This document shows, piece by piece, positions 7,473 through 42,043 of a stretch of 64,000 nt of DNA. A program made the position numbers and the translations under genes. This DNA comes from Vulcanimicrobiota bacterium. Its GTDB lineage: Bacteria > Vulcanimicrobiota > Vulcanimicrobiia > Vulcanimicrobiales > Vulcanimicrobiaceae. The notes beneath the pieces are model-generated. The model saw only the letters and a list, made by a program, of their open reading frames with translations, searched no databases and was not told where the DNA came from. The stretch covers positions 32,001 through 96,000 of the forward strand of contig CAWHWQ010000008.1 of assembly GCA_963833095.1 (NCBI GenBank), read 5' to 3'. How positions within the stretch are numbered: position 1 is the first letter of the stretch; every line of letters begins with the position of its first letter.

Positions 7473-9776
7473 GTGCCCGAATCCGTGACCTTAGAGGTCG
7501 GCGGGCGCACGATGGTCATTGAGACCGGCGAACTCGCGAAGCAAGCCAACGGCTCCGCGCTGATTCGTTACGGTGAACAGAATGTCGTGCTCTGCGCCGC
7601 CACTGCCTCGCTAAAACCTCGCGAAGGCATCGACTGGTTCCCACTTACTTGCGATTTCGAAGAGAAGATGTACGCTGCTGGAAAGATTCCGGGCGGCTAC
7701 ATCAAGCGCGAAGGACGCCCGCCCGAGCACGCCGTGCTCAGCTCGCGTCAGATGGATCGTCCGATCCGTCCGCTCTTTCCCGAAGGTTTTCAGAACGACG
7801 TGCAAGTCGTCGCGACCGTGATGTCGGTCGATCCCGAACTCGACCCCGACGTGCTCGGGATTTGTTCTGCCGGTGCAGCGCTCGCGTTGTCGGACATCCC
7901 GTTCGACGGACCGGTAGCCGGCGTTCGCGTTGGACGCGATGAGAACGGTAAATTCATTGCCAATCCCACGCTACCGCAATATGTGACCGGCGGCATGGAG
8001 ATCGTGGTTGCCGGCACCGCCGATGCGATCATGATGGTCGAAGGCGGCGCGGACGAAATTTCCGAGGAAGATTTCCTCGGCGCAGTCGAATTCGCGCACG
8101 GCGAGATCAAGAAGATCGTCAAGGCGATCAATCAACTCGTGAAAAAGGCCGGCAAAGACAAGCGCGAGTATCCGCTCAAAAAGGTCAACGCTGACCTCGA
8201 CAAGTGGGTGCGCAAGACGTTTGCGAAGGATGTCGCCAAGGCGATGCGCATCGTCGACAAGCACACGCGCGAAGCCGCGTTCTCGGACATCAACGTCGCC
8301 GAGGCGCTCGAACGCGTCGGCAAAAAGGACGACAACGTCAAAGCGTTGCTCGAGAACTCGGACACCGCCAAAGAGTTCGGCAAGATCGTCAAGGGGATGG
8401 AAGAGGACGAGCTGCGGGTAATGGTCGTCGACGAAAAGATTCGTCCCGACGGCCGCAAGCCCGACGAAATCCGACCGATTTGGAGCAAGGTGCATTACGT
8501 GCCGCGCGTCCACGGTTCGGGCGTGTTTACGCGCGGACAAACGCAGGTCTTTACCGCAGCGACGCTCGGGTCGACCAGCGACGCTCAGCGGCTCGACGGT
8601 ATCGTCGCGCTCGAAGATAAGCGCTACATGCACTTCTACAACTTCCCGCCGTTCTCGGTCGGCGAAACGCGTCCGATGCGCGGACCGGGTCGCCGCGAAA
8701 TCGGCCACGGTGCGCTCGCCGAACGCGCGTTGCTGCCGGTGCTTCCGAAGAAGGAAGATTTCCCGTACACACTGCGCCTGATGAGCGAAGTGCTCGAATC
8801 GAACGGATCGTCGTCGATGGCGTCGGTCTGCGGTTCGTCGCTTGCACTGATGGATGCCGGCGTGCCGATTACCGACCACGTCGCGGGCGTGGCGATGGGC
8901 CTGATTCTCAAAGGTAAGGACTACTCGGTCCTTACCGACATCCAGGGCCTCGAAGATGCGCTCGGCGAGATGGACTTCAAAGTCGCGGGCACCAAGAAGG
9001 GTATCACCGCGATTCAGATGGACATCAAAGTCCAAGGCATCACAATCGAGATCATGCGCGAAGCGATGGCGCAAGCCAAGAAGTCGCGCTTCTTCATTAT
9101 CGACAAGCTCACCGAAACGATCGCCGAGCCGCGCAAGGAACTCTCGGAGTATGCGCCGCGAATGATCGTGATCAAGATCAACCCCGACAAGATCAAAGAC
9201 GTCATTGGACCAGGCGGCAAGATCATCAACAAGATCATCGCCGAGACCGGCGTCGAGAAGATCGACATCGAGGACGACGGTACCGTGTTCATCACGTCAC
9301 TCGACGGTGCGAGCGGCGAAGCCGCGCGACAGTATGTCGAGAACATCACCAAAGACATCAAGGTCGGTGAAATCTACACCGGCACGGTCAAGCGGGTGAT
9401 TCCGATCGGTGCATTCGTCGAGATTCTTCCGGGTAAGGAAGGCCTCGTGCACATCAGCCAACTCGCGCCCGAACGTGTCGCGAAGGTGGAAGACGTGCTC
9501 AACGTCGGCGATACGACGCAAGTCAAGGTGATGGAAATCGACGGACAAGGCCGCGTCAATCTCTCGCGCAAGGCCGTGCTTGCTCCGGGTTCGGAGAACA
9601 GCGGCGGCGGTGGTCGCGAGAGTCGTGGCAACGGCGAATTCCGTCCGCAGCGTCCGCGCCGTGACGACGCAGAGCCCGCCGGCGCAGTTGCCGGACCCGG
9701 CCCTGCTCCCGATGGACCCGGCGCGCCGCCAACGCGGCGACGCCGTCGACCGCCGACACATCGCGACGACGAATAG
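7473..9776 (+). CDS. pnp: Polyribonucleotide nucleotidyltransferase (PNPase)
   Basis: GKIPGGYIKREGRP, HGSGVFTRGQTQ, RREIGHGALA, SNGSSSMAS, GEMDFKVAGT, KH domain (VIGPGGK) and S1 domain; SD AGGAG at 7463. Confidence 0.99.
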   Translation: MPESVTLEVGGRTMVIETGELAKQANGSALIRYGEQNVVLCAATASLKPREGIDWFPLTCDFEEKMYAAGKIPGGYIKREGRPPEHAVLSSRQMDRPIRPLFPEGFQNDVQVVATVMSVDPELDPDVLGICSAGAALALSDIPFDGPVAGVRVGRDENGKFIANPTLPQYVTGGMEIVVAGTADAIMMVEGGADEISEEDFLGAVEFAHGEIKKIVKAINQLVKKAGKDKREYPLKKVNADLDKWVRKTFAKDVAKAMRIVDKHTREAAFSDINVAEALERVGKKDDNVKALLENSDTAKEFGKIVKGMEEDELRVMVVDEKIRPDGRKPDEIRPIWSKVHYVPRVHGSGVFTRGQTQVFTAATLGSTSDAQRLDGIVALEDKRYMHFYNFPPFSVGETRPMRGPGRREIGHGALAERALLPVLPKKEDFPYTLRLMSEVLESNGSSSMASVCGSSLALMDAGVPITDHVAGVAMGLILKGKDYSVLTDIQGLEDALGEMDFKVAGTKKGITAIQMDIKVQGITIEIMREAMAQAKKSRFFIIDKLTETIAEPRKELSEYAPRMIVIKINPDKIKDVIGPGGKIINKIIAETGVEKIDIEDDGTVFITSLDGASGEAARQYVENITKDIKVGEIYTGTVKRVIPIGAFVEILPGKEGLVHISQLAPERVAKVEDVLNVGDTTQVKVMEIDGQGRVNLSRKAVLAPGSENSGGGGRESRGNGEFRPQRPRRDDAEPAGAVAGPGPAPDGPGAPPTRRRRRPPTHRDDE

Positions 9777-36074: not shown

Positions 36075-37001
36075 TTACACGTTCACCTGTTGCTCGAAGT
36101 AGGTGCCTTGCTCGAGGTCTTGCAGCAGCGTCCGGTGTGTCGGATTCCATCCGAGCCGTTCGCGCGTAAGGCGGCTCGAATTCGGAGCGTCCATCGCAAC
36201 GAAGCGCCCCATGCGTCCGAAGTGCTCATCGGCTTCCTCGGCGGGCACCGAGACGATAGGCAGGTTCAGGTTTTTTCCGATCGCAATAGCGATATCGCGA
36301 AACGGGACGCCCTCCTCGGCTGATCCGTGAAGCCGCGAACCAGCTGCCGCTTTTTCAAGTGCCAAGCGGAAGAGCACGGCGGCGTCGAGCCGATGCACTG
36401 CGGGCCAGCGGTTTGATCCGTCACCCACATACGCTGAGGTACCCTTGGCGCGGGCTATGCCGATCAAGCCGGGGACGAAGCCCTTATCGCCGTCGCCGTG
36501 GACCGATGGGGGAAGGCGCACGACCGACGAGCGAACGCCGGTCCCCGCCATCGCCAAGGTTACGACTTCCGATGCGTTGCGAGGCGACGCCGGATCGCCC
36601 GCGTCGTCTTCGGTTCCCAGCCGCCCGGGTGTCAGGCCCAGGAGTCCCGAGGTGATGACCAGCGGACGATTGGACCCGGCCAGCACTTCGCCCATCGCCT
36701 CGATCGCGCGCCGATCCGCTTCGGCCGCTGCCATAAACAAGGCGAAGAAATCGCCGTCCGCGGCATGCAGCCAGTCATGGTTGTATCCGGCGTGAATCAC
36801 GCCGTCGGATGCCTGCGCGCCACGTTTGAGGCTGTCAAGATCCTCGAGCGGGCCGCGTTGCACAGCGACCCCCTTGGCCTCAAGCGCCGCGGCGGAAGCA
36901 TCCGAGCGAGCAAGACCGACCACGTGGTGCCCCGCACCGGTTAATTCATTCACGATGGCCGAGCCGATAAATCCGGTCGCGCCGGTTACAAAAACTCTCA
37001 T
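36075..37001 (-). CDS. Extended SDR / NAD-dependent epimerase-dehydratase
   Basis: VFVTGATGFIG, VRLPPSVHG, WPAVHRLDAA. Confidence 0.93.
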   Translation of the reverse strand: MRVFVTGATGFIGSAIVNELTGAGHHVVGLARSDASAAALEAKGVAVQRGPLEDLDSLKRGAQASDGVIHAGYNHDWLHAADGDFFALFMAAAEADRRAIEAMGEVLAGSNRPLVITSGLLGLTPGRLGTEDDAGDPASPRNASEVVTLAMAGTGVRSSVVRLPPSVHGDGDKGFVPGLIGIARAKGTSAYVGDGSNRWPAVHRLDAAVLFRLALEKAAAGSRLHGSAEEGVPFRDIAIAIGKNLNLPIVSVPAEEADEHFGRMGRFVAMDAPNSSRLTRERLGWNPTHRTLLQDLEQGTYFEQQVNV

Positions 37002-37046
37002 GAGCGCTATGCTAGAGCCTTATCGTGGTAACGAAAAGCCGTGGGG

Positions 37047-37061
37047 TTATACCGGTATAAT
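37047..37061. promoter_or_regulatory. Perfect 14-bp palindrome TTATACCGGTATAA overlapping TATAAT, between the divergent SDR and XRE genes
   Basis: Palindrome at 37047..37060; TATAAT at 37056..37061. Confidence 0.65.
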
Positions 37062-37905
37062 GATTAACAGGCAGAGCGCGGTGCCGGAGCAGGAAGAGAA
37101 TCTGCTTGGGAATTTCTTGAAGGATCGCCGCACCAAGCTCGATGCCGCTCGCTTCGGCTATGCGTCGACGAGAAGGCGTACGCCCGGCTTACGGCGCGAA
37201 GAAGTTGCGCAGCGCGCCGGCGTGAGCACCACCTGGTATACGTGGCTGGAGCAAGGGCGCGGCGGAGCACCCTCCGCCGATGTGCTCGAACGACTGGCTG
37301 ATGCGCTCGCGCTGAGCGAGGTCGAGCGCGAGCATCTTTTCTTGCTCGCGCAAAACCGGCCGCCGGAAGTGCGTCATCACGACGTCGAAGCCGTTTCGCC
37401 GCAACTGCAGCGCATTCTCGACGCGATGGAGTATAGCGCCGCGTACATCAAAACAGCGGAATGGGACATCCTTGCTTGGAATCGCGCGGCCACCGTCGTG
37501 TTTCGCGACTTGATGGCGCTTCCGGACGATCAGCGCAATCTCTTGCGCGTGGTCTTCGATCCGCGCGCTCGAGCGGCGATACTCCACTGGGAAAGCGTCG
37601 CACAATTCGTAGTAGCGACATTCCGAACCGAAATTGCGAGAATCGGGGTCTCCGCGCGCGCCAAGGCGCTGATCGATGAGTTACATCTATCGTCCGCGGA
37701 ATTTCGAGCATTGTGGCGCAGCCATGACATCCGCGCGCACGGCGAAGGAACGAAATACATTGCGCATCCGACCGCCGGATTGGTCACCTTCGAATATTCG
37801 GCTTTTGCAATCGACGGTCAACCACAGCTGAGCATGATCGTCTACAACCCGGCGACACCGAAGGATAAAGCCGCCGTTGCAGCGCTCATCGAAGCGCTAC
37901 CGTAA
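37060..37905 (+). CDS. XRE HTH regulator with MmyB-like ligand-binding domain (start at ATG 37060 or GTG 37081)
   Basis: RRRTPGLRREEVAQRAGVSTTWYTWLEQGR, WDILAWN, FRALW..HD. Confidence 0.93.
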   Translation: MINRQSAVPEQEENLLGNFLKDRRTKLDAARFGYASTRRRTPGLRREEVAQRAGVSTTWYTWLEQGRGGAPSADVLERLADALALSEVEREHLFLLAQNRPPEVRHHDVEAVSPQLQRILDAMEYSAAYIKTAEWDILAWNRAATVVFRDLMALPDDQRNLLRVVFDPRARAAILHWESVAQFVVATFRTEIARIGVSARAKALIDELHLSSAEFRALWRSHDIRAHGEGTKYIAHPTAGLVTFEYSAFAIDGQPQLSMIVYNPATPKDKAAVAALIEALP

Positions 37906-37911
37906 CCACCG

Positions 37912-38550
37912 TTACTTACACTTCGTATCGCCGGAGAACATCCCGGCAACACATTCTTCGTTGCGCTGCATCGCTTGGGCCGCGGCGTTAATCTCGTGAT
38001 TCAGCTGGGCCAATGACTGGAGCGTCTCACTTAGCCGCGTCACCGCGCGATCGCGATGGACGCCAAAATCACCGCGCGCTGTTTGCACCTCGTCGCTCAA
38101 CGCAGCGAGCCTCGTCTGATAAGCACGCATTGCTGAGGCCCCCGCTTCGATGGCGCCAAAATTCCAACTCTGCTGGCCGCTTTTTCGCAGCATCCCCATA
38201 TTCATCTGAGGCAGTACCTGCTCGTTCGGCGCGTTGTATTGCGAGGATGCGGATATCGCTTGGAGCGCCTGGTGAAGTTCGTGCAGTGCGGCGCGCATGT
38301 TGTCGCTCGTGCGCTGCAAGCTAGCGTTGACTTGCGTTCCGGCCTGACCTCGAAGGTGAACGGCGATTTCCGAACCGGTCGTCTCGATCTGCCCGCCCAC
38401 TTGAGCGATTTCACTGGTGAGTCGGTCAAAATTTGCGGCATTCGCGGCAGACGCCGCGGGGTCGGTCTTCATGTCCGCCGCGCAAGTCGGCACCGGGACA
38501 AAGAATGCGGCTATGGCCAGCACACCAACGAAAAGATAAAGAGGCTTCAT
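37912..38550 (-). CDS. Signal peptide plus CFP-10(EsxB)-like and ESAT-6(EsxA)-like tandem WXG100-derived fusion, 212 aa
   Basis: ADMKTD..A..A.NFDR...Q.ETT...RGQAGT...QY resembles CFP-10; QQSWNFGAIEAGASA...DE and AQAM..E..VAGMF resemble ESAT-6 (compared with sequences recalled from memory); ATG overlaps the upstream TGA. Confidence 0.82.
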   Translation of the reverse strand: MKPLYLFVGVLAIAAFFVPVPTCAADMKTDPAASAANAANFDRLTSEIAQVGGQIETTGSEIAVHLRGQAGTQVNASLQRTSDNMRAALHELHQALQAISASSQYNAPNEQVLPQMNMGMLRKSGQQSWNFGAIEAGASAMRAYQTRLAALSDEVQTARGDFGVHRDRAVTRLSETLQSLAQLNHEINAAAQAMQRNEECVAGMFSGDTKCK

Positions 38551-39581
38551 GCCGCTCGGTTGACCGTAAGGCGCTCGTCGACCAGCGCGACGATTTCGTC
38601 GACGACGTCGGACTGCATGCCTTTTTGCGCGGCGAGCGACTGCACGAGGCGATCGACGCGCTCGATGTTCTTTGCGCCGGCGTAGAGCGCGCGCGCGGCC
38701 GAAGCGGGCTTCACGAGAATGTCGGCGGCGTTTGCGTACTTCTCGAAGGGCACAAGGTCGTCGCGCGAAGCGCCGAGCGCTACGCACAGATCGGCTACCC
38801 AGGCGTACACAGCGCCTGATGCATCGCGATCGCTGTGCACGGCATCGCGGATCGAGCGCGCATCGCCCTTTTGTATGCAGCGATAGTTGCCGGTCATGAG
38901 CATCGCCCATTTCGCCATCGGCACGTAGATCGAGTCGTACACCTTCAGCTTCACCGGAAGGCCGACGGCATCTACGGCCGTTTCGAGATCGCGAAGCATC
39001 TGCGTGCGCGCATCAGATTCAAATCGCGCCGCTTTGAAGTTTGTCGGCAGCGTTACTTGCAGCACGTTGATCGGTTCGTCAGGGGGGCGGAACGCTTGAG
39101 GATCCGGGCTACACACCGTGATGTTTGCCGCGTCAAAGTGCTGCCACACGCTCGGATCGGTATAGCACCGTTCGAGCGCGCTTGCATCGACGCCGGGCAC
39201 GCGCTTGAAATACGGTAGCGGCGGCATATTCATGATCGCCATGCATGCGACGCCGGCTTTAGCGGTTGCGCCCAAGAGCTCGCGTACACCCGGCGATCCG
39301 TACTGCGGCTCTTGCATCGCCAGCACAACGAGATCGTACTTGCTTGGATCGACGTCGTTCGGGCCGGCAGCGCGAAGCGTGCCGGGCGCGTTGCGCGTAT
39401 CGATCTCGACCAATGTCTCGCGCCCTTTGACCGGAACCCGGAGCACCACGCCGTCGCGATTGATCGCCTCCACTTCGGTGGGCAGGCACACGAGTGTAAC
39501 GTCCTGGCCGGCAAGCGCCAACTTCGCGCCTAGCAACGAGCCATACGATGCACCAAAGACGAGGACGTTATAACGCTTCAC
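38547..39581 (-). CDS. Ketopantoate reductase (ApbA/PanE)-like Rossmann-fold protein
   Basis: VLVFGASYGSLLG...G.DVTLV, YDLVVLAMQEPQY; GTG start. Confidence 0.7.
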   Translation of the reverse strand: MKRYNVLVFGASYGSLLGAKLALAGQDVTLVCLPTEVEAINRDGVVLRVPVKGRETLVEIDTRNAPGTLRAAGPNDVDPSKYDLVVLAMQEPQYGSPGVRELLGATAKAGVACMAIMNMPPLPYFKRVPGVDASALERCYTDPSVWQHFDAANITVCSPDPQAFRPPDEPINVLQVTLPTNFKAARFESDARTQMLRDLETAVDAVGLPVKLKVYDSIYVPMAKWAMLMTGNYRCIQKGDARSIRDAVHSDRDASGAVYAWVADLCVALGASRDDLVPFEKYANAADILVKPASAARALYAGAKNIERVDRLVQSLAAQKGMQSDVVDEIVALVDERLTVNRAA

Positions 39582-39627
39582 ACGACCCCCAAAAACTTGG
39601 CCTTGGATCTTTGAAAACTTGAAAACG

Positions 39628-39714
39628 TGGTGCCCAGGAAGGGACTCGAACCCCCACGATGTTGCCACCGCCAGCACCTGAAGCTGGTGCGTCTACCAAT
39701 TCCGCCACCTGGGC
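39628..39714 (-). tRNA. tRNA-Leu(CAG), 87 nt, CCA encoded
   Basis: GCCCAGG/CCTGGGC acceptor stem, D-loop GGAATTGGTAGAC, anticodon arm CCAGC-TTCAGGT-GCTGG, long variable arm, GGTTCGAGTCC. Confidence 0.98.
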
Positions 39715-39843: not shown

Positions 39844-40837
39844 ATGCCCCAACTCAGACTAATCTCGCACGACGAAGCTACCCTTCGGGGCGCGCTTTCG
39901 CTCGCACCTCAAGACAGTGACGATATCCTAGACCCGTACTCGCAGGCGGTGACCACTGCCGCCGAGCGCGTTAGTCCCTCGGTCGTCGCCATCGAAGTCC
40001 ACTCCGGCCGCCATGGCGGTAACGGCTCCGGCTTCGTCTTTACGCCCGACGGTTTCGTCCTCACCAACAGTCACGTCGTTCATGAGGCCGATCACATCTC
40101 GGTCGGATTGCTCGACGGACGGGAACTCTCGGCAACGTTAATCGGCGAGGATCCGCATACCGATCTTGCGGTGCTGCGTGTCGATGCGCCCGAACTCGTA
40201 CCGGCAGCGCTCGGGGATTCGTCGCGCTTGCGCCCCGGGCAACTCGTGGTAGCGGTCGGCAATCCGCTCGGCCTGGCCTATACTGTAACCGCCGGCGTCA
40301 TCAGCGCGCTTGGCCGGTCTCTCCGTTCGCAATCGGGACGACTCATGGACAACATCATTCAAACCGATGCCGCCCTAAATCCCGGGAACTCCGGCGGTCC
40401 GCTGGTGACGTCCAACGGTGAGCGTGATCGGTGTGAACACCGCGGTTATGCCGGGTCAAGGGTTGTGCTTCGCGATCGCGATCAACACCGCGAAGCACAT
40501 TGCCGGACTCTTAATCCGTCACGGCAAAGTGCGGCGCGGCTATTTCGGTATCGCCGGGCAAGACATCACGCTCGCGGCCTCCGCGGCGCGTCGCTTCATG
40601 CTCACCGATCCCCGCGGCGTGTTGGTCGATTCGGTGGAGCCAGGTAGTCCGGCTGATACCGCGCGTTTGCGCGCGGGTGACGTGCTGCTCGCAATCGAAG
40701 GCGAACGCATCGTGGGAGTGGACGATTTGCACAAGCGCCTTACCTCGATCGATCTCAGCCGTCCGTACAAACTCGATATCTTGCGCAAAGGCGAACGTCA
40801 CGCGCCGATAATCTTACCCGTCGAATCACCAGAATGA
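39844..40837 (+). CDS. HtrA/DegP-like S1C serine protease with PDZ domain and no signal peptide; frameshift at about 40420
   Basis: [45 protein letters not shown]. Confidence 0.93.
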
Positions 40838-42043
40838 TCCGTAAGCTCATCCCGATCCTTGGGATCACGTTCATCGATATCATCGGCTTTAGCATGCTGC
40901 TGCCGGTGTTGCCGTATTTCGTGACCCATTTCGGGATGAGCGCGATCGTCGTCGGGCTTCTGCTCTCGACATTCTCGTTCTGTCAGTTGGTTTCGGGTCC
41001 GATCTGGGGCAACATCTCGGATCGCATCGGGCGGAAGCGCGTACTGATCATCAGTCAGATCGGCGCCACAATCGGATGGTGCATGCTCGCGTTCGCGCCG
41101 AACATCCTGTGGGTCTTTTTCGCGCGAATCGTCGAAGGCGTCTCGGGCGGAAACATCGGCGTCACCCAGGCCTATGTCGCCGACTTGGTGGAAGGAAAAG
41201 ATCGCGCGCGCGCATTTGGATTGCATCAGCGCGACCTTTGCCGCGGCGATGGTATTCGGGCCGGCCGGAGGCGGCCTGCTCTATAGTAAATTTGGCTTTT
41301 CGGCCCCGTTCCTCGCCGCGTCGGCGTTGCAGTTCCTCACGCTGATCCTCACGATCGTGCTCCTACCGGAATCGCGTTCGAAAGTCGAAGAGGATCAGGC
41401 CCACGTCGGAATGCGCGAGATCGCCGCGACCTTCACCAACCCCCGCTTCTCGCCGCTTCTTATCCAGAAACTTGCGCTTTCGCTCTGCCTATACGGGTGG
41501 TACTCGGTGATCGCGTTGTATCTCGCCGGACAACTCCACTTCGGCCTGGTTGCGACGACCTATTATTTTTCCGCTTTTGCGGTGATCAACGTGCTGATCA
41601 ACGGCGTCGGAGTCGGCAAGGCATCGAGTCGCTTCGGTGACCGCGTGATGTCGACACTCGGCCTCGGGCTGCTTGTCGTGGGTATGGCGTGCACGCCGTT
41701 CGTGCACAATCCGCTCAGCTTCGCCGGCGTGATGGTGCTCTTTGCAATGGGCAGCGCGTATGCGAACAACGGCATCAACGCCATGCTCTCCAACGCCGCC
41801 TCCGAACGCGAGCAGGGCACGGTGCTCGGCGTCGGCTCGTCACTCGACGCACTCTCCGGCATCATCGCGCCGCCGATCTCCACTGGTCTCTTGACCACGT
41901 ACGGGCCGGGTTTCGCCGGCATCGAATCGCTGGTGATGGCCATCATCGGACTGATCCTCGGCGTGCGAAACACTCTGCTGACTTCCGCAGTACCACCTGT
42001 CACAACTGAACCACTGGCTGCTGAAGAATTGGAGCCAACGTGA
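40834..42043 (+). CDS. DHA1/TetA-like MFS transporter; frameshift at about 41220
   Basis: [37 protein letters not shown]. Confidence 0.9.

Follow-up and report, generated by a model that had tools for sequence, protein, structure and literature searches.

The small proteins EsxA (ESAT-6) and EsxB (CFP-10) define type VII secretion. They are separate, co-transcribed members of the WXG100 family that form a 1:1 four-helix bundle exported by ESX-1, and the motif associated with export by type VII systems is YxxxD/E. It is still debated which part of the biology of the pair reflects an intrinsic activity and which part its role in the secretion machine. In Mycobacterium tuberculosis (PDB 1WA8, 3FAV and 6J19), EsxB and EsxA are two chains encoded by two genes. 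That two partner hairpins from the EsxAB-like superfamily can be joined in one chain is known from EspB (PDB 6XZC), a mycobacterial type VII substrate that has no Sec signal and whose halves are PE- and PPE-like and not EsxB- and EsxA-like. Engineered CFP-10/ESAT-6 antigens (e.g., the database entries P0019 and P0026) are likewise single-chain Esx units, but they are near-identical copies of the M. tuberculosis proteins joined by design. In the literature that we searched, which excluded most subscription journals, no report was found of a natural fused or tandem WXG100 protein or of one routed through Sec, and none in Eremiobacterota.

Here we analyze a stretch of 64,000 nucleotides (the window, G000:C8:32001-96000, from contig CAWHWQ010000008.1 of assembly GCA_963833095.1) that belongs to an Eremiobacterota metagenome-assembled genome (MAG) of 2.8 Mb, eight contigs and 80.7% completeness. 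On the minus strand, positions 37912..38550 encode a protein of 212 amino acids (P0001, in the following the esx fusion), which combines a putative Sec-type signal peptide, an EsxB-like half, a linker, an EsxA-like half and a cysteine-containing tail. With a probability of about 0.8, we interpret the gene as a horizontally acquired and domesticated ESX-1-type esxB-esxA pair that was fused in one frame behind an N-terminal Sec signal peptide. Compared with the M. tuberculosis pair, the order of the two units, the homology of each half and the two hairpins predicted to form a four-helix bundle are the same, while two chains from two genes have become one open reading frame (ORF) and one chain.

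The 212 codons and the stop codon translate without interruption, as had been proposed in an earlier reading of the DNA letters (the sequence-only reading), and the residue strings quoted there for both halves were reproduced on retranslation. Formally, the longest ORF extends further upstream to an ATG at 38910. That additional stretch overlaps the neighboring gene in another frame, and the start at the MK/MR codon is the one found in most homologues. A word-based search of 5.8 billion proteins returned 12 other proteins of 191-221 amino acids that are 61-90% identical and all fused alike. Three more distant proteins (P0015-P0017) with the same layout of signal peptide and fused halves were found in an exhaustive profile search (E 5e-49 to 1e-41, 38-40% identity).

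All parts of the gene discussed here lie on the minus strand. The EsxB/CFP-10-like helical hairpin comprises residues 25-120 (38191..38478) and the EsxA/ESAT-6-like hairpin residues 126-206 (37933..38175). The linker between them, LRKSG (residues 121-125, 38176..38190), stands where split genes have the stop codon of esxB, an intergenic spacer and the start codon of esxA, and the tail GDTKCK (residues 207-212) together with the stop codon occupies 37912..37932, both as delimited in the family alignment. When all PDB sequences were searched with phmmer (E≤10), five matches were obtained and all of them were M. tuberculosis proteins: residues 21-112 were covered by three chains of EsxB/CFP-10 (E 7.5e-7 to 4.6e-6), and residues 126-206 by two of ESAT-6 (E 5e-4). 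With a profile of 13 family sequences, the E-values reached 9e-12 for EsxB, 4e-7 for ESAT-6 (again over residues 126-206) and 7e-5 for 4lws_A; Staphylococcus aureus EsxA was not significant (E 0.26). The sequence-only reading, which had called residues 25-120 CFP-10-like and residues 124-206 ESAT-6-like, is thereby upheld for both halves, and the refuting outcome that it had named, hits to generic coiled coils only, was not observed.

We also constructed hidden Markov models (HMMs) from 16 EsxB-like and 6 EsxA-like hits of the family's own profile, so that only the contrast between the two models is informative. In 12 of 12 members the N-terminal half scored 39-72 bits on the EsxB HMM versus 4-10 bits on the EsxA HMM, and the C-terminal half 23-50 bits on the EsxA HMM versus 4.5-9 bits on the EsxB HMM. 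For the window copy, the respective values were 62.9 versus 8.1 bits and 46.5 versus 6.8 bits. Judged by sequence, the N-terminal half is specifically related to EsxB and the C-terminal half to EsxA, which corresponds to the B-then-A order of the operon.

Unfused relatives were found in Actinomycetota. A profile scan of genome contigs confirmed ten loci, five of which belong to the fused family and five to Mycobacterium sp. (three) or uncultured Actinomycetota (two). At the five actinobacterial loci, both halves are covered by the match, with 26-33% identity. In L016, L018 and L020, esxB and esxA are separate and adjacent, and a PPE-like ORF lies upstream of them, with PF00823 confirmed in the ORFs of L018 (E 3e-47) and L016 (E 6e-48). 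Such PPE-esxB-esxA loci (L016-L020) are the closest non-fused relatives of the esx fusion. The best hit outside the family among 1.84 billion representatives is EsxB of L018 (P0020, E 8e-11), which is 33% identical to the N-terminal half over 99 columns; L018 EsxA is 34% identical to the C-terminal half over 92 columns with 12 gap positions. The word WNFGAIEAGAS and an MNMG tail are common to the esx fusion and the L018 pair. Pairs of this type differ from the esx fusion in consisting of two ORFs that are read in different frames (in L018, esxB at 7998-8294 and esxA at 8332-8616) and separated by a spacer of ~37 nt, in lacking a signal peptide, in their intact WXG motifs, in Pfam WXG100 scores of 54-58 bits, in the PPE gene upstream and, in L020, in a ParA/MinD-like ATPase gene downstream. 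The profile gave 63 hits at E≤0.001, and those inspected were EsxB-like or EsxA-like proteins of ~100 amino acids.

The best reading of these data is an old inter-phylum transfer from an actinobacterium, with donor and direction deduced from the distribution of the genes and not from a rooted tree. The capture and fusion of an actinobacterial esxBA pair proposed in the sequence-only reading is supported by the half-specific homology, the operon order and the actinobacterial PPE-esxB-esxA loci as closest split relatives. Conceivably, no transfer from Actinomycetota took place and the family represents an independent, older WXG100-like lineage, or even the source of the actinobacterial genes, the likeness being due to shared ancestry or convergence. 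Such a history would accommodate the identity of just 33-34% and the deep members without taxonomic placement. It would also agree with the composition of the gene, which gives no signal of recent transfer: its GC content of 0.588 and its GC content at third codon positions (GC3) of 0.667 lie slightly below those of the neighbors (0.60-0.64 and 0.68-0.75, respectively), so that composition is largely ameliorated. It does not explain why both halves match the ESX-1 pair specifically and in operon order while other WXG100 structures are not significant, nor the long words shared at both termini (MKTD, WNFGAIEAGAS, MNMG and GMFS). Moreover, split esxBA genes in ESX loci are widespread across Actinomycetota, and none of the 383 sampled genomes from the other 115 Eremiobacterota genera contained the esx fusion. 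We consider an origin without actinobacterial transfer improbable.

Within Eremiobacterota, the sequence-only reading had pointed to full-length fused orthologues as something to look for, and these were indeed found. Genome surveys are samples and some of the genomes are incomplete. The family profile matched two of 201 genomes of the host's family and six of 401 Eremiobacterota genomes, all of them in a single genus (g1; five of 17 genomes plus the window's own). In five further genomes of this genus that are 92-96% complete (G108, G063, G133, G339 and G192), a 2.5-kb DNA query covering the MmyB-like gene, the esx fusion and the ApbA-like gene of the window never matched in the esx segment. 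The MmyB part was matched in all five (in three over its full length at 79%, in the other two partially at 71-73%); G063 alone also matched the ApbA part (86%). Flanking DNA is thus retained in the absence of the esx segment, and presence or absence of the gene varies at the strain or species level within the genus. Related loci carry the label Candidatus Eremiobacteraeota, and one protein is labeled Candidatus Baltobacteraceae. No match to the esx fusion was obtained when plasmids were searched with tblastn. A search with P0016 retrieved this protein alone, and a metagenome scan, which relied on a narrow alignment, yielded its contig only (L021, 3.3 kb), on which two long ORFs adjoin the gene. 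As a side observation, an 86% identical esx fusion resides on contig DATKPZ010000229.1 (L012) of a MAG labeled Alphaproteobacteria. Its HtrA, DUF302 and MFS neighbors are those of the Eremiobacterota loci, and the contig is probably misbinned.

Single-chain arrangements also appeared elsewhere among the hits. P0037, P0041, P0076 and P0077 are mostly singleton single-chain EsxB-EsxA proteins with intact WXG motifs and without a signal peptide, and P0056 is a rare protein of this kind with intact WXG and a signal-like N-terminus. These five may be natural actinobacterial fusions or artefacts of gene calling or assembly. The library of proteins clustered at 50% identity also contains synthetic constructs, such as an ESAT-6 multimer and Ag85-type fusions (P0019 and P0026), and not every hit is therefore natural. 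For the esx fusion, a synthetic construct was considered and rejected, as the family is diverged and varied and sits in syntenic chromosomal DNA; it comprises many natural variants that are 33-34% identical to the split homologues, unlike the engineered antigens. Scores in the ESM Atlas all stayed below 0.9 and are leads only; one lead was a cluster of ~204-residue WXG100 proteins at 0.82.

An addition to the EsxB-EsxA unit that the sequence-only reading had overlooked is found at its N-terminus. Residues 1-24 (38479..38550; MKPLYLFVGVLAIAAFFVPVPTCA followed by AD) begin with M-K, continue with ~18 hydrophobic residues and end with P-T-C-A, and a twin arginine is not present. Kyte-Doolittle means over 11 residues range from 2.2 to 2.9 across residues 3-21. 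The family consensus at the end of this segment is P-A-P-A-R-A/A-E-M (ARA/AE, the slash marking the predicted cleavage site), and a small-x-small site (TCA/A, ARA/A or ARS/A) occurs in 11 of the 12 members for which the N-terminus is available, the exception being ART. After removal of this segment the chain would start with A-D/E-M-K/R-T-D, which lines up with positions 1-6 of mature CFP-10. On the grounds of hydropathy and conserved N-termini, we read residues 1-24 as a Sec signal peptide with an AXA site for signal peptidase I, at which cleavage would take place. Such a signal peptide would explain how the fused protein manages without a type VII system.

The same segment could serve as an uncleaved signal anchor, or as a lipid anchor in the copies bearing a cysteine, and the bundle would then be tethered to the outer face of the inner membrane. 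A single hydrophobic stretch of ~20 residues is compatible with this arrangement, as is the cysteine at position 23 (-2 relative to the cleavage site) in the window copy and its closest relatives. This residue is an arginine in most members of the family, so that there is no conserved lipobox, and the threonine at -1 to the cysteine is atypical for a lipobox. A lipoprotein was rejected on the basis of the family alignment. As a small-x-small site precedes the mature end almost throughout the family and the sequence behind it begins precisely at the CFP-10 start, a membrane-tethered protein appears unlikely, and we favor cleavage and release as the fate of the precursor.

While the conserved N-terminal words and the GMFS end of ESAT-6 are retained, features specific to type VII secretion have changed. 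In the EsxB half, the turn reads HLRGQAGT versus QWRGAAGT in CFP-10, the tryptophan of WXG thus being gone. Several actinobacterial EsxB-like hits likewise lack this tryptophan. At the site of the YxxxD/E motif the window copy reads YNAPNE, in which D or E is not found at the required distance from the tyrosine. The tyrosine is invariant in the family; at +4, members of the genus clade have N, H, G or R, and YxxxD is kept in P0015 and P0017. The C-terminal MNMG(F) of EsxB is preserved as MNMGM and runs directly into the linker, so that the EsxB tail is internal to the chain and not free. The EsxA half aligns with ESAT-6 from QQSWNFGAIEAGAS to AAQAM...VAGMFS, both of which are retained, but ~12 residues around the WXG turn are gone and RGD is found where ESAT-6 has WGG. 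The deletion is shared with P0015-P0017 and is therefore old in the family. From these comparisons, the features specific to type VII secretion are judged to be decayed: the WXG turn of either half, the YxxxD/E motif and the unattached tail of EsxB. The Arg-Gly-Asp tripeptide at the EsxA turn (residues 159-161, 38068-38076) is invariant or nearly so in the genus clade and is not kept in P0015-P0017; its occurrence is probably coincidental.

No type VII system was detected. The window genome contains a single FtsK-like region that scored 118.5 bits with TIGR03928 (EssC; cut-off 778) and 101.7 bits with TIGR03924 (EccC; cut-off 509), and no EccC/EssC above cut-off. Of the five other carrier genomes, four, including the single-contig genome G168, have a sub-cut-off FtsK-like region with the EccC model, and the fifth (67% complete) has none. 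The six carriers are 67-93% complete, and one is a single contig. Scans with PF06013 revealed only the esx fusion and noise in these genomes and no further WXG100 gene. Ecc, mycosin, PE/PPE or other ESX genes were not present among the ten neighboring ORFs scanned. The statement of the sequence-only reading that such genes are missing from the 64 kb agrees with this, as does its assumption of a non-actinobacterial diderm host: the genome is an Eremiobacterota MAG and harbors a match to a BamA-like model that responds only in diderm controls, which points to an envelope with an outer membrane. The host is a soil bacterium outside Actinomycetota. Taken together, the esx fusion resembles ESAT-6/CFP-10 in architecture and homology and at the same time departs from WXG100 proteins and type VII substrates in several defining respects, namely the curated model score (this copy), the WXG motif, the heterodimer encoded by two genes, the freedom from a Sec signal peptide (a hydrophobic N-terminus with an AXA site is present instead) and the linkage to EccC.

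Structure prediction with AlphaFold2 (AF2) and the family alignment gave a mean predicted local distance difference test score (pLDDT) of 77 and a predicted template modeling score (pTM) of 0.71, with pLDDT values of 84-97 in the helices. Helices were predicted for residues 31-65 and 68-101 in the EsxB half and 131-156 and 165-201 in the EsxA half. Residues 1-27 are unstructured and the linker region 119-126 is disordered, both with pLDDT below 50. The helix-turn-helix of ~100 residues that characterizes WXG100 hairpins thus occurs twice in one chain. The model supports one chain that packs its two hairpins into a compact four-helix bundle. A Foldseek search of the PDB returned no match at E≤0.001. 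With VIA-align, 120-143 residues spanning ~32-205 could be aligned with solved four-helix bundles (Z 10-12, root-mean-square deviation (rmsd) 2.5-3.6 Å). EspB gave Z 8.9 with 153 aligned residues and an rmsd of 4.0, which is in the generic range for helical bundles. Matches to ferritin-like and Dps proteins (Z 9-12, 5-10% identity) are in the tool's common range for such bundles and are not accompanied by a Pfam or PDB sequence match.

Two pairs of cysteines, absent from the M. tuberculosis proteins, have been added in the family. The tail pair, Cys200 and Cys211, is present in all ten alignment members that reach that far and in P0014, and absent from P0015 and P0016. In the G411 copy (locus L015, about 8595-8605), the conserved cysteine codon before VSGMFS is replaced by TGA and the tail is lost, with the downstream codons still in frame; P0011-P0013 also end near this point. 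A second pair sits around residues 31, after TD where helix 1 begins, and 103, before the conserved tyrosine where helix 2 ends. It is found in most members outside the window's clade, with the first cysteine of P0008 displaced by four residues. In the six sequences of the window's clade both residues are absent together. The positions fit a disulfide stapling the EsxB hairpin, but the joint absence amounts to a single loss event.

The gene is under purifying selection. Ten pairs among five distinct within-genus alleles gave ratios of non-synonymous to synonymous substitution rates (dN/dS, Nei-Gojobori method) of 0.26-0.39 at dS values of up to 0.97. For the neighboring genes (15 comparisons, seven gene segments), dN/dS was 0.02-0.29 with a median near 0.10, and dS was similar or higher. 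The esx fusion protein therefore evolves roughly three times faster than the proteins of its neighbors, and its neighbor-like dS, which is as expected for vertical descent within the genus, argues that the gene was inherited with its surroundings. Faster evolution would also be seen if the fused gene had been acquired once and were now a functionless relic in the process of being lost. Its presence in no more than six of 18 genomes of the genus, the TGA in one copy and the decay of the type VII motifs could be taken in the same sense. A relic is hard to reconcile with dN/dS values well under 1 across dS values of up to ~1.0, with 59 alignment columns that are invariant across 13 family sequences and with a frame that is intact in five of six genomes and was kept through a local rearrangement that altered the neighbors. 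In addition, the same architecture is found in members that are only 38-40% identical. We regard a decaying relic as highly improbable and retain the domesticated, selected gene as our interpretation.

The fused frame is also supported by independent assemblies. Logan contigs from four public runs were compared with window positions 37600-38900. In run X3, a short-read contig of 1294 nt spans 37600-38567, i.e., the whole ORF and one flank, without a single differing letter or gap, and no insertions or deletions were listed in any of the four runs. The junction (38170..38200) is thus in frame and the gene is linked to its flank, as the sequence-only reading presumed, and 12 of 12 homologues are fused. 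An artefact of assembly or binning, contamination, or an indel causing read-through of two genes might be suspected because this genome has other genes (HtrA-like, MFS, BamA-like) that are broken into two frames and because one related locus bears an alphaproteobacterial label. Given the exact contig and the occurrence of the same fused frame next to syntenic Eremiobacterota neighbors in five other genomes, which include a single-contig chromosome, we deem such an error barely credible.

Several observations weigh against the interpretation as a captured, fused and Sec-exported esxBA pair. The window copy stays below threshold on Pfam WXG100 (PF06013; 18.8 versus 27.3 bits) and on TIGR03930 (20.1 versus 44.85 bits), and does so with its N-terminal half only; the Pfam family expected in the sequence-only reading was thus missed by this copy, but it is matched at E≤0.01 by ten of 13 family members, and the distant P0015 passes the threshold at 42.4 bits. 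Identity to actinobacterial EsxB and EsxA is merely 33-34%, with donor and direction resting on distribution, and the deepest members, P0015-P0017, are on contigs without taxonomic placement, so the family may reach further back in time or beyond a single genus. The N-terminal segment might stay uncleaved and act as an anchor. The structure matches are generic helical bundles (ferritin/Dps, YciE/YciF and vinculin-like) with Z≤12. Neither DsbB nor VKOR was detected in the genome, which is 80.7% complete, and this weakens the disulfide idea. A conserved operon partner was sought across L011-L015 and the window and none was found. The sole RNA run shares 0.07 of the query words; like the other runs with values of up to 0.10, it was left out of the contig comparison and gives no support for expression. 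Finally, 12 of 18 genomes of the genus are without a match and one copy has a premature stop, which indicates that the gene is dispensable.

If the interpretation is correct, the following course of events can be envisaged. An ESX-1-type esxB-esxA pair would have moved from an actinobacterium into the ancestor of the Eremiobacterota genus, or into a wider, unplaced lineage that includes P0015-P0017. Deletion of the stop codon, the spacer and the start codon would have fused esxB and esxA, and a signal peptide would have been gained directly ahead of the EsxB start. The features for EccC-dependent export, no longer needed, would then have decayed, while the helical faces and the terminal segments of ESAT-6 were kept. 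In the present-day cell, the precursor would cross the inner membrane via Sec, and signal peptidase I would cut after the AXA site and thereby create a mature N-terminus (A-D/E-M-K-T-D) matching the one of CFP-10. Outside the cytoplasm, the chain would fold into the intramolecular equivalent of the 1:1 ESAT-6/CFP-10 bundle, which one or two disulfides may staple in most family members. The weakest step concerns the role of the product, for which we suggest, with low confidence, a helical bundle that acts outside the cytoplasm by binding to membranes or proteins and that individual strains can do without. The patchy occurrence of the gene, its rapid evolution and its variable locus are what one would expect of a dispensable factor that faces the environment from outside the cytoplasm.

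A fused EsxB-EsxA protein that is kept under selection, probably exported via Sec and not accompanied by a detectable type VII system argues that the bundle can be useful alone. We tentatively propose, as a possibility that we would not yet bet on, that the ESAT-6/CFP-10 bundle is intrinsically active, independently of the type VII machine, and that here it was captured by a diderm soil bacterium from an actinobacterial neighbor, welded into one chain, exported via Sec and selected as a strain-variable extracytoplasmic factor, e.g., a membrane-active or competitor-directed one. The family would then be a natural single-chain version, free of a type VII system, of a much-studied effector pair and could separate the effector role of the pair from its secretion role. 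The harmless protein of a soil bacterium thus offers a test of EsxAB activity without the usual secretion machine. It would also exemplify a transfer between phyla after which the export route changed, with a signal peptide gained and type VII motifs lost. The signal peptide, the motif decay, the patchy and fast-evolving family, its distribution and the selection data go beyond the original idea of an esxBA fusion, which is both supported and extended.

The immediate surroundings of the gene are variable. Ten neighboring ORFs were annotated: MFS, DUF302, epimerase, MmyB-like, ApbA-like, HtrA-like (two frames), a second MFS (two frames) and AIM24. Upstream and co-directional lies a gene for a PanE/ApbA-like oxidoreductase (38547..39590, minus strand; PF02558, E 7.9e-6), the TGA of which overlaps the ATG of the esx fusion (ATGA), and the two genes are therefore probably co-transcribed in the window strain. 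A scan for promoters and terminators gave no excess of sites over shuffled controls. On the other side, a gene for an MmyB-like helix-turn-helix regulator (36826..37905, plus strand; PF17765, E 1.3e-46; PF13560, E 4.3e-16) is convergent and ends 6 nt from the esx stop codon. A tRNA-Leu(CAG) gene (39628..39714, minus strand) borders the variable region holding the esx fusion. The latter is always found near the same HtrA-like gene, whereas its immediate neighbors vary among strains: the ApbA-like gene precedes it in the window and in L015, follows it in L011 and L014, and is not adjacent in L012 and L013.

Some minor observations concern this region and its genome. In the window genome, the genes for an HtrA/DegP-like protease (39844-40837), an MFS transporter (40834-42043) and the BamA-like protein (G000:C8:205627-206743) are each split over two frames, which reflects either real frameshifts or assembly indels; in L011, the HtrA-like gene is a single ORF of 330 amino acids. 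In L014, the 13 nt after the esx stop codon are identical to the complement of the 3' end of the MmyB-like gene. Together with the swapped order of the esx and ApbA-like genes, this hints at either a tandem duplication with differential loss or excision and reinsertion. Loose contig ends at 38536 in three runs match upstream sequence of the L011/L014 type. A contig of run X4, which stems from a related strain, connects position 37896 to 38552 through 21 unrelated letters and skips exactly the 655 bases with the esx ORF, and at this empty site the ApbA-like and MmyB-like genes stand back to back.

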